A stretch of 64,000 bases of DNA from a virus, in the IMG/VR virus record IMGVR_UViG_3300014152_000001, positions 41,749 through 105,748 of that record. One strand, given 5' to 3'. The notes beneath the pieces were generated by a model, which was given only the letters and a program-made list of their open reading frames with translations, ran no database searches and had not been told where the DNA came from. Position numbers and translations under genes: made by a program. This document shows, one piece after another, positions 53,212 to 55,084 of this stretch (the stretch's first letter is position 1; every line of letters starts with the position of its first letter).

Positions 53212-54056
53212 GCAAGAACAAAAGATTCAAGAAGGTAGACAGATTCTTCAAAGCGATAAGAATCGTCTTCATAGGTGATATGCACGTTGGGTCAATCTAC
53301 TCTGTGGCCTCTCCATTCGTTACCTTGACTTCAAACGATGCTCCCACTACGCTTGAAACAACGAAGAAGCAACACGCTTTGTTTGAGGTATTTTCAGAGT
53401 GTGCGAAGAAGTTCTCCCAACCTGACCTTCTAATGGTAGTTGGAGAGCCGATTGATGGCCCTAACCCTAAAAGCCCACAAGACGCTTGGACGCTGAATAC
53501 AACAGACCAGATAAATGAGGCCGAAAAACTGGTCAAGATGTTCGGAGCCAAGAAGATTAAAATGGTCAGAGGGTCTGGCTATCACGGAAGCAACATGAGA
53601 GGGCAGAATGCGGAAATGACCTTTGCGGAACAGGTGGGCGTTAGTCCCAATTCCGATGGCGAGTTGGTTCCAGCAGAGCACCTATTAAACGTCAATGGCA
53701 CACGCATTCTCGTTGCTCATCACCAACCCAATTATACGGTGTATAGGGCAACTGGCTTAAACAAACAAGTCAAAAATATGTATGTAAACGCGGGAGTCAG
53801 AGAAACGAAACCTTACAATTGTATGGTGTTCGGCCATGTCCACTTCTACGATTGTGTAGACATATACAAGTGCAAAGTCATCTCATTGCCAAGTTGGAAA
53901 CTGAACGATTGGTTCAGCAAAAAGACCGGAATTGGTGACGATTCCAGCATCGGTGCAGTTCAACTCACAATCCAGCCCAACGGAAAAATGACCGTAGAAG
54001 CACTCATCTACGACCTACCACATGAAAGAGAACCAGAAGAGGAAGTCGTCTCATGA
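53208..54056 (+). CDS. calcineurin-like metallophosphoesterase
   Basis: GDMHVG, GEPIDG, GSGYH, AHH, FGHVH. Confidence 0.85.
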   Translation: MSKNKRFKKVDRFFKAIRIVFIGDMHVGSIYSVASPFVTLTSNDAPTTLETTKKQHALFEVFSECAKKFSQPDLLMVVGEPIDGPNPKSPQDAWTLNTTDQINEAEKLVKMFGAKKIKMVRGSGYHGSNMRGQNAEMTFAEQVGVSPNSDGELVPAEHLLNVNGTRILVAHHQPNYTVYRATGLNKQVKNMYVNAGVRETKPYNCMVFGHVHFYDCVDIYKCKVISLPSWKLNDWFSKKTGIGDDSSIGAVQLTIQPNGKMTVEALIYDLPHEREPEEEVVS

Positions 54057-55084
54057 AGACTCCAAAGTTAGTTCGTAGAGAACCCCCTCAGACCACCGAG
54101 CCAGAGCATCCTGAACTGGTCTTGCCAGAGGAAGACGTTCCCGAAGAACTGCTTCCTTACAGTATGACCATTGACGGCTTCTATCAAGAAGTGAAACGAG
54201 CACCTGCTGACAAACCACTGAGACGGAGAAATCTCATCTTCTTGGTGAAGTCATTTGAAGATGCTCAACACACTAGAGTTATGGCCATGAACCGCCTCAG
54301 AGCGATGGGACGCTCCGAAGACCAGTTGAAGGACGACCTCAAAAGTTATGCTGGCCCCGAACTCATTCTGAAAAGGACGATTGAAAAGTTGCTCAGATTT
54401 GAGCCAATCTATCAGGAACACCTAAGCAAGATTACAGGGGTTGGGGCTTCCTATGCTGGCAAATTGATTGCTTACATCGGTGACATCGAGAGGTTCCCCA
54501 ACGCCAGTAAACTGACCACTTACGCTGGACTGAATGTAATCACTCGTTGCGGAAAGTGCAAGAAGAGAATCTTCCTCAACAACGATGGCCAAGTCAGTCC
54601 CTTTGAGACTAACAAGTGGGTTGAACACATAATGGGACGACTCAAGATGCAAGCCGACAAACGCCTTGACAAAGTGGCATTCAACGAAGCAGAAGCACTT
54701 GAGGACTTACAGACCCACATCTGTAAGTGTCCTAATCCAGAAGTGATTCGAGTCGCACCAAAGCGGAAGCGTGGTGAACTCGTTGAATGGAATCCCGACT
54801 TCAGAAGTCTGCTGTGGAACATCGGCAAGCAGTTCGTCAAACAAGGGAAGGCATACAGAACCCTTTACGATGGTATCAAAGCCGAGCAGACAGAGCGAGA
54901 TGGCGCAACACTTTCAAAGGGGCAAATCGATGCACGAGCCAGAAGGAAGGTAATGAAGGTCTTCCTCAATCAATTATGGGAACAATGGAGACTGATTGAA
55001 GGATTGCCAGCCCCTAATCTTTGGGTGTTGGAGCATGGTGGTCACACGGATAAATTACCTCTGTTGAGGGATGAGTCGGTGTGA
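54053..55084 (+). CDS. Nop-domain RNA-guided protein (TIGR-associated, TasA-like; related to the IS110 C-terminal domain) with a Cys-rich insertion
   Basis: Coiled coil (Q..RV...NRL), ITGVG...AGKLIAYIGDIERFPNASKL..YAGL, WN...RS.L..IG..FVK, Y...YD..K, ARARRKV.KVFL..LW..WR..EGL; no RuvC/DEDD domain; array immediately downstream. Confidence 0.85.
   Translation: MKTPKLVRREPPQTTEPEHPELVLPEEDVPEELLPYSMTIDGFYQEVKRAPADKPLRRRNLIFLVKSFEDAQHTRVMAMNRLRAMGRSEDQLKDDLKSYAGPELILKRTIEKLLRFEPIYQEHLSKITGVGASYAGKLIAYIGDIERFPNASKLTTYAGLNVITRCGKCKKRIFLNNDGQVSPFETNKWVEHIMGRLKMQADKRLDKVAFNEAEALEDLQTHICKCPNPEVIRVAPKRKRGELVEWNPDFRSLLWNIGKQFVKQGKAYRTLYDGIKAEQTERDGATLSKGQIDARARRKVMKVFLNQLWEQWRLIEGLPAPNLWVLEHGGHTDKLPLLRDESV

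Follow-up and report, generated by a model that had tools for sequence, protein, structure and literature searches.

TIGR-Tas systems, described in 2025, couple a Nop-domain protein to an array of short guide RNAs, the tigRNAs. According to their nuclease domains, Tas proteins are sorted into subtypes: TasR features an N-terminal RuvC domain, active or dead, TasH an HNH domain with catalytic His/Asn/His residues, and proteins without an N-terminal nuclease domain are by published definition TasA. TasA proteins bind tigRNAs of 36 nt (Faure 2025, PMC12045711), and systems of the dual-repeat type keep a compact, conserved Nop domain (Xu 2026 preprint). At either end of the unwound target, a wedge loop splits off or caps the DNA strand which is displaced (TIGR-Tas literature, including the preprint 10.64898/2026.08.11.744272); in TaTasR it spans residues G210-K230 (Xu 2026 preprint). 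Tas proteins are under development as very small, programmable DNA binders and cutters, free of any requirement for a protospacer-adjacent motif. The DNA analyzed here, called the window throughout, is a stretch of 64,000 nucleotides (positions 41,749 to 105,748) of the IMG/VR virus record IMGVR_UViG_3300014152_000001, whose genome measures 105,748 bp. It hosts a locus best explained as a complete dual-repeat TIGR-TasA system, made by a tasA gene encoding a nuclease-free TIGR-associated Nop-domain protein of 343 residues (window 54053..55084) and, immediately downstream, a tigRNA array (55089..55458); all the elements of the system are on the plus strand. The wedge loop of this TasA is enlarged by a module marked by four cysteines (Cys4). 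The module is conserved and widespread, and the subgroup of dual-repeat TasA proteins which feature it is an exception to the compact Nop domain reported for these systems.

The tasA gene is an entry in the program-made list of open reading frames (ORFs) of the window. Its likeness to the C-terminal region of IS110 transposases had been noticed in a first reading of the letters made without database searches (the sequence-only reading), and is borne out by Pfam, which finds PF02371 (Transposase_20) alone, at residues 122-164 (E 1.9e-7). Among solved structures the best sequence match detected by phmmer is TaTasR (9mty_A, E 2.4e-28), followed by SpTasH (E 5e-4); matches to the IS621 and ISCro4 recombinases reach only E 0.64. 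An AlphaFold2 model built from 148 homologues has a mean predicted local distance difference test (pLDDT) score of 90.2. The comparison of the fold with Tas, IS110 and Nop5 structures, suggested in the sequence-only reading, returned TasR, TasH, IS110 recombinases and Nop5 as top matches in both Foldseek and VIA-align, TasR being the closest. In VIA-align the score is Z 20.7 for 9mty_B, with a root mean square deviation of 2.3 Å over 200 residues and a match beginning at chain residue 110, past the RuvC domain; TasH entries score Z 17.9-19.8, IS110 recombinases about 15, archaeal Nop5 proteins 7-8.

Neither DEDD/RuvC nor HNH domains, nor PF01548, are matched by Pfam in TasA, in agreement with the first reading of the protein as nuclease-free, and the N-terminus is short and disordered. 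The N-terminal RuvC, active or dead, that marks TasR is missing, as is the HNH with catalytic His/Asn/His of TasH. Because the N-terminal nuclease domain is absent, the product of 54053-55084 is, as judged from its sequence, a Tas protein of the TasA subtype. Among module-bearing homologues, PF02371 was found in 27 out of 41 and HNH or DEDD in none. The model NF052498 (TIGR_Tas_endo) of NCBIfam release 20 is passed with 146.7 bits against a cut-off of 100; the name it carries, "TIGR-Tas system RNA-guided endonuclease", would be applied by current NCBI annotation and is ill-fitting, since the protein has no nuclease domain. Automatic annotation as a transposase, foreseen in the sequence-only reading, occurs with Pfam and with PHROGs (phrog_4285, E 4e-31), not with NCBIfam.

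The protein can be described in a modular fashion. Residues 1-46 (54053..54190) form a Pro/Glu-rich leader predicted to be disordered: mean pLDDT in blocks of 10 residues is 43-59 over residues 1-40, and Pro and Glu make up 43% of the first 37 residues, in line with the leader described at first sight. In total, 53 residues, mostly modelled with low confidence, precede the coiled coil, against a median of 17.5 in module-bearing homologues; the leader may be untranslated if the real start is M38 (ATG at 54164). The coiled-coil dimerization hairpin (residues 54-114; 54212..54394), made by modelled helices 54-84 and 89-114, aligns to TaTasR K109-H168, according to the boundaries given in the methods of Xu 2026. 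The first part of the Nop C-terminal domain (residues 122-162; 54416..54538), delimited by PF02371 and by alignment to TaTasR and IS621, ends with Y157-A-G-L. The remainder (residues 237-343; 54761..55081) aligns to TaTasR 219-316, and includes helix alpha4, where W255 and R251 are located, and the C-terminal loop, which contains W324 and H331. An aromatic/basic residue pair of alpha4 has been described at the DNA-unwinding junction (preprint 10.64898/2026.08.11.744272). By alignment alone, Y238, the aromatic junction residue of TaTasR, corresponds to W255, and R251 lies four residues earlier; the family consensus in alpha4 is K-x-L-x-W-K-I-G.

The two parts of the Nop domain are separated by the wedge-loop insertion (residues 163-236; 54539..54760), defined by the TaTasR alignment, the model and the conservation of the cysteines as a putative zinc site clamping a basic helical hairpin. 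TasA residues 67-162 align in phmmer to TaTasR 120-213, and residues 236-335 to TaTasR 219-316; about 72 residues, close to the 70 or so first estimated by eye, are found where TaTasR has about 6. As the gap between TaTasR residues 213 and 219 falls within G210-K230, the insertion is located in the wedge loop. In IS621, the catalytic S241 resides in the alpha3-alpha4 loop (PMC11208158); IS621 198-237 aligns to TasA 122-161, and the insertion occupies the equivalent loop. It had been placed at a nuclease or recombinase site in the sequence-only reading, which is correct for the catalytic-serine loop of IS110 proteins, not for the nuclease, as Tas nucleases are N-terminal. The absence of Ser-Gly after Y157-A-G-L, and its replacement by cysteine pairs, were seen correctly: the residues which follow are NVITR-C166-GK-C169, and the second pair, in H222-I-C224-K-C226, is 54 residues away. 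These features bear on the hypothesis that tasA is the remnant of a decayed IS110-family transposase, set by chance next to unrelated repeats. The transposase labels of Pfam and PHROGs speak for it, as does a weak and partial match to the NCBIfam model transpos_IS110 (NF033542; 30.9 bits, cut-off 140). The protein has no DEDD domain and no catalytic serine, TasR is matched at E 2.4e-28 and IS621 at 0.64, and the adjacent array has the exact anatomy of a TIGR array and recurs beside homologues, which are not full-length IS110 transposases. A decayed transposase is accordingly rejected, and hardly any weight can be given to it.

In the model, the insertion consists of a short strand leading to C166-x2-C169, a helix at 183-203, a second helix at 212-220, C224-x-C226 and a return strand, so that the cysteine pairs flank a helical hairpin. 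Confidence is high, pLDDT being about 96-98 within the whole model and 91.6 when the module is folded alone against 48 homologues. The four cysteines are invariant in 41 cluster representatives, and since these are only about 27-38% identical to TasA the pattern is beyond chance. Residues K171, R172, F174, W189, R196, L197 and P229 are also conserved in the set. Modules have a median length of 68 residues and a median net charge of +7, and Lys and Arg account for 24% of the residues. Segments of the same length with 0-2 cysteines were found in relatives P0032, P0034, P0065, P0112 and in that encoded at locus L011; in these, both N-terminal cysteines are gone, and Trp replaces the second cysteine of CxC. 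The concerted loss of both N-terminal cysteines fits a single metal site. Altogether, these patterns suit a helical arm with one structural metal site at its base, and the four cysteines probably hold a zinc ion, as supposed when the segment was first called a zinc-stabilized module. A 39-residue wedge in which the CxxC...CxC knuckle is kept and the two helices are absent is encoded by L055 (13-744, plus strand), a contig of 1.1 kb; this minimal wedge is possibly an intermediate or reduced form of the module.

Pairs CxxC and CxC flanking a strand-helix segment recall HNH domains of the zinc type, and TasA has His at positions 192 and 222. The insertion might hence be a degenerate or new zinc-dependent nuclease with an HNH-like beta-beta-alpha-metal fold, and the protein a cryptic TasH. 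In the 41 representatives, residues at the position of H192 are mostly K or R, at that of H222 mostly M, W or S, and no His, Asn or Asp is conserved throughout the module. Pfam detects HNH in none of the 41 proteins, and the cysteine pairs are separated by 54 residues with two long helices in between. Fold searches made with the isolated module list no HNH domain, a result weak on its own: the best Foldseek match in the PDB has E 2.9, the best one in an exhaustive VIA-align comparison Z 4.0, hits being generic helical hairpins, and no fold match was found in BFVD. A canonical HNH fold is thus not what the insertion adopts; the nuclease hypothesis is discarded on the grounds of residue conservation, Pfam and fold searches, and appears very improbable.

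A HMMER search of 1.84 billion cluster representatives yielded 1,964 matches, and the wedge classes were counted in the best 150. Modules featuring Cys4 plus helices are present in 46 of these 150 proteins (about 30%; median wedge segment 73 residues), a figure in which P0145 is included by the rule based on length and cysteines despite an insert of about 300 residues. Other cysteine-rich wedge insertions (median 52 residues) were found in 31, long cysteine-poor insertions in 8, and a short turn of about 11 residues, as in TaTasR, in 65 of the best matches. The idea of a rare subtype put forward in the sequence-only reading is therefore not tenable, the module being common among the nearest representatives. 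The insert of P0145 (629 residues), at the wedge-loop position, ends with ...VVHNC and resembles an intein whose middle is homing-endonuclease-like; an intein would be unusual at this point of a Tas protein, where the strands are separated.

The phylogeny of Tas proteins called for at the outset was obtained with FastTree on 206 core columns, leaving the wedge out, and is weakly resolved. Module-bearing proteins are clustered (21 changes on the tree versus 39 for shuffled labels), and one well-supported clade of 16 contains 15 of them. They do not form a single clade, however: at least 7 changes are forced by well-supported branches, and an origin of the module in one clade is not supported by the tree. 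Given the clear homology of the module in all its bearers, one gain followed by repeated losses would be the simpler reading.

Module-bearing loci were analyzed in a set of 121 Tas loci fetched from IMG/VR and the JGI metagenomes, those with the module coming only from the metagenome scan. The module is encoded at 7 of the 121 (L042-L045, L047, L056, L058). A dual-repeat array of 36-nt units is directly downstream from the gene in 6 out of 7, and the seventh contig ends at the gene; the module hence goes with ordinary 36-nt guides. Four of the six arrays have the identical edge repeat, TGCGAGCCA. With TasA as sole query, no close relatives were found in IMG/VR; a search of a phage collection gave one partial match, in the Microcystis phage Mvi-JY20, and a search made with one subset alignment (A5) confirmed no relative.

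The array of the virus, not cited in the sequence-only reading, starts 5 nt past the tasA stop codon and includes 10 tigRNA units of 36 nt, as deduced from a Tandem Repeats Finder period of 36 and from parsing of the units. Each unit is made by the edge repeat TGCGAGCCA, the 9-nt spacer A, the loop repeat TGA[CT]A[CA]CCA and the 9-nt spacer B, which measures 10 nt in two units. In its first copy the edge repeat is degenerate (TGAAGCCA). Both repeats open with UG (box D) and close with CCA (box C), the motifs typical of tigRNAs; in the edge repeat an additional C-G pair lies between the two boxes, and the loop repeat is rich in A and C, features also reported for TaTasR. The UG...CCA layout of box D/box C, a truncated first edge repeat and a terminator at the end of the array have all been described for TIGR arrays (Faure 2025, PMC12045711). 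Right after the last edge repeat, RNA folding reveals a GC-rich hairpin followed by a T-rich stretch (55464..55487). Folding of the interval 55455-55505 gives -20.9 kcal/mol (z -5.5), and none of 200 shuffled sequences is equally stable; the hairpin is likely a terminator or the 3' end of the array transcript. A simple consensus scan for terminators and promoters gave nothing relevant on the plus strand, and the hairpin is not in its output. All 10 copies of the edge repeat present in the 105.7-kb genome are in this array, the only one that the genome has, no guide-like unit was found inside tasA, and no Rfam family matches the array. Two ORFs run through the array, one of 148 residues on the plus strand (55081-55527) and one of 240 residues on the minus strand (55014-55736); since their products, featuring LRAI...MTP and MARN...GV, respectively, are in-frame translations of the repeats, it is almost certain that neither is a gene.

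Guide RNAs may themselves be what the module serves, by keeping the figure-eight of the tigRNA open, or by positioning the precursor (pre-tigRNA) for processing. The wedge loop of PateTasR is inside the tigRNA figure-eight and contacts the box C uracils (Xu 2026), the module is strongly basic, and insertions in the Nop domain co-vary with tigRNA features in stem-loop systems. Module loci, in contrast, use standard dual-repeat units of 36 nt, often with the same edge repeat, like the loci of Tas proteins with short wedges. As these units are shared, no RNA feature co-varies with the module, and a role directed mainly at the guide seems quite unlikely.

The docking of a trans-acting effector, by which the target DNA would be cut or modified, is a further role to be considered for the module; recruitment of a partner had also been suggested in the sequence-only reading. 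A candidate partner is encoded just upstream by an ORF for a calcineurin-like phosphoesterase (53208-54056, plus strand), whose stop codon overlaps the tasA start as ATGA. The match to Metallophos (PF00149) is weak, 22.3 bits against a cut-off of 21.5, and PHROGs suggests a "DNA repair exonuclease" (E 5e-4). In SpTasH the wedge loop and a beta-hairpin provide the docking surface for the HNH domain (PMC13421893), a precedent for such a platform. Homologues of the phosphoesterase, however, were found within 2.5-3 kb of tas at none of the 121 loci, including the 7 with the module (blastp, E<1e-3), which rules it out as a conserved partner, and gene overlaps are the norm in a genome packed as densely as this one. 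Also listed in favour of docking, N-terminal extensions of at least 90 residues, enough to hold a nuclease, occur in 14 of 65 proteins with short wedges and in none of 85 with long insertions (raw Fisher p 3.4e-6), raw counts which reduce to 3-5 independent contrasts and are not significant once relatedness is allowed for. Mutual exclusion of wedge insertions and nucleases is thus dropped as a rule, and a docking platform is judged unlikely. Related to this is a broader proposal, to be taken as tentative and rather doubtful, according to which proteins with the Cys4-clamped hairpin are a distinct class of dual-repeat TasA, in which the wedge either replaces the DNA grip of the nuclease domain or lands a separate effector. 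If so, the class would form unusually stable R-loop roadblocks, or be part of a two-component RNA-guided enzyme.

The locus is most likely a working TIGR-TasA system, in which TasA is probably an RNA-guided DNA binder which does not cut, and stands in the way of transcription or replication at a target of the host or of a competitor. The tasA gene and the array would be transcribed together, and the transcript cut into ten tigRNAs of 36 nt. A coiled-coil dimer of TasA would bind each tigRNA via the UG/CCA (box D/box C) motifs of edge and loop repeats, and each of the two 9-nt spacers would pair with one strand of an 18-bp target. Because TasA has no nuclease, the resulting ribonucleoprotein would act as a sequence-specific roadblock rather than a cutter. 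RNA-guided, reversible repression of transcription has been reported for MbTasA (Xu 2026 preprint), in a setting limited to TasA proteins other than the one described here. The 72-residue insertion would enlarge the wedge loop just ahead of helix alpha4, at the DNA-unwinding junction; the four cysteines, probably with one zinc ion, would clamp the base of the Lys/Arg-rich two-helix hairpin, and the rigid basic arm may cap or grip the displaced strand, or the flanking duplex, stabilizing the unwound complex.

Several observations weigh against this view of the system. The proposed binding of zinc and of DNA and the processing of RNA are deductions rather than experimental results, and the contacts of the module are predicted solely from where it lies along the chain. 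A second half-site of the CxC type is rarer than one of the CxxC type, and in a poorly resolved family tree the module is found at scattered positions. SpTasH processes its own pre-tigRNA via Y289 and H296 (PMC13421893). These residues align to TasA W324 and H331: the His is kept, the Tyr is changed to Trp, as in TaTasR. Because the processing Tyr is replaced by W324, autonomous tigRNA processing by TasA is uncertain on the basis of the alignment. No natural target was found in the virus itself. All six joinings of spacers A and B were compared with the 105,748-bp genome on both strands, without any match at 2 or fewer mismatches in 18; the best one, with 3, is no better than expected by chance. 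For comparison, in gigabase-scale collections about one exact 18-nt match per pattern would arise by chance. Since every spacer pair has at least 3 mismatches to the genome, self-regulation of the virus by its guides is not indicated.

The host of the virus carrying the TIGR-TasA system is probably archaeal. At window 1082-3060, on the minus strand, a gene for a ribosomal protein uS2 of the archaeal/eukaryotic type (TIGR01012, E 1.3e-38, below the family cut-off) adjoins a gene for an archaeal RecJ-like nuclease, and the presence of both in the window suggests such a host. The TIGR-Tas locus is flanked by runs of small ORFs (55-125 residues) rich in CxxC motifs, at 50210-51623 and 55653-56968 on the plus strand, likely encoding zinc-ribbon mini-proteins; no match was found for the four tried, three against Pfam and two against PHROGs. 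Upstream of tasA is an RNase H gene (PF00075/RVT_3; 52133-53102, plus strand), and the start of an ORF for an HNH endonuclease (phrog_2255) overlaps its last 89 nt or so. On the minus strand, the interval 57229-59202 encodes a HerA/FtsK-type ATPase of 657 residues (DUF87, Pox_A32; terminase large subunit in PHROGs), with Cys-rich segments inside the chain, a long tail rich in Lys, Glu and Pro and, at the C-terminus, a C2H2 zinc finger; tblastn found no match to it in the phage collection.

A large share of dual-repeat TasA proteins would thus feature, at the very loop which separates the strands, an arm that is rigid, basic and probably bound to zinc. If the arm raises affinity for DNA or residence time on it, it would help to explain how a nuclease-free TasA can work as a roadblock, and would be a natural, portable add-on for engineered repressors and activators. 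If it merely embellishes the structure, what remains is a well-formed instance of a system already known, in a virus which is probably archaeal. Zinc and cysteine are not mentioned in a relevant sense in the texts, to which this survey refers, of Faure 2025 (with its five supplementary files), Xu 2026, the PlTasA preprint and the SpTasH paper; a ring in Extended Data Fig. 1 of Xu 2026 may already show the module subgroup.

None of the characterized TasA, TasR and TasH proteins compared (FpTasA, TaTasR, SpTasH, PlTasA) has the module. FpTasA from Flavonifractor plautii (Faure 2025, PMC12045711), the dual-repeat TasA studied by experiment, is a solo protein made by coiled coil and Nop domain with no nuclease, like the TasA described here, and is similarly adjacent to an array in which edge repeats alternate with loop repeats, the A and B spacers measuring 9 nt and the tigRNAs 36 nt. 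Its wedge measures about 35 residues and has no cysteines (supplementary file 5), against about 72 residues, invariant Cys4 and two helices in the viral protein. PlTasA, known from cryo-EM (preprint 10.64898/2026.08.11.744272), and MbTasA and BlTasA (Xu 2026) are also nuclease-free, RNA-guided DNA binders. An accessory hairpin at the wedge position of PlTasA caps the displaced strand, and MbTasA represses transcription. These proteins differ from the viral TasA in that they use stem-loop tigRNAs and have wedge elements which are short hairpins or disordered, with no Cys4 reported; in BlTasA the wedge element is encoded by intragenic tigRNAs, whereas tasA contains no intragenic guide unit.

TaTasR (9MTY), a Tas protein of the dual-repeat type, shares with TasA the box C/D logic of the repeats and a Trp-x6-His pair in the C-terminal loop, but features an N-terminal RuvC domain of about 110 residues and a wedge turn of about 11 residues, and lacks the zinc module. 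SpTasH (9W03, 9W04, 21KL) has a similar Nop core, a dual-repeat array and the processing His (H296, corresponding to H331). In contrast to TasA, it has an N-terminal HNH domain and a short wedge loop on which this domain docks, and Tyr289 in place of Trp324. The IS621 and ISCro4 bridge recombinases resemble TasA in the coiled coil and Tnp/Nop fold (Z about 15), but have a DEDD RuvC domain, a catalytic serine and a bridge RNA, where the viral locus has a tandem guide array.

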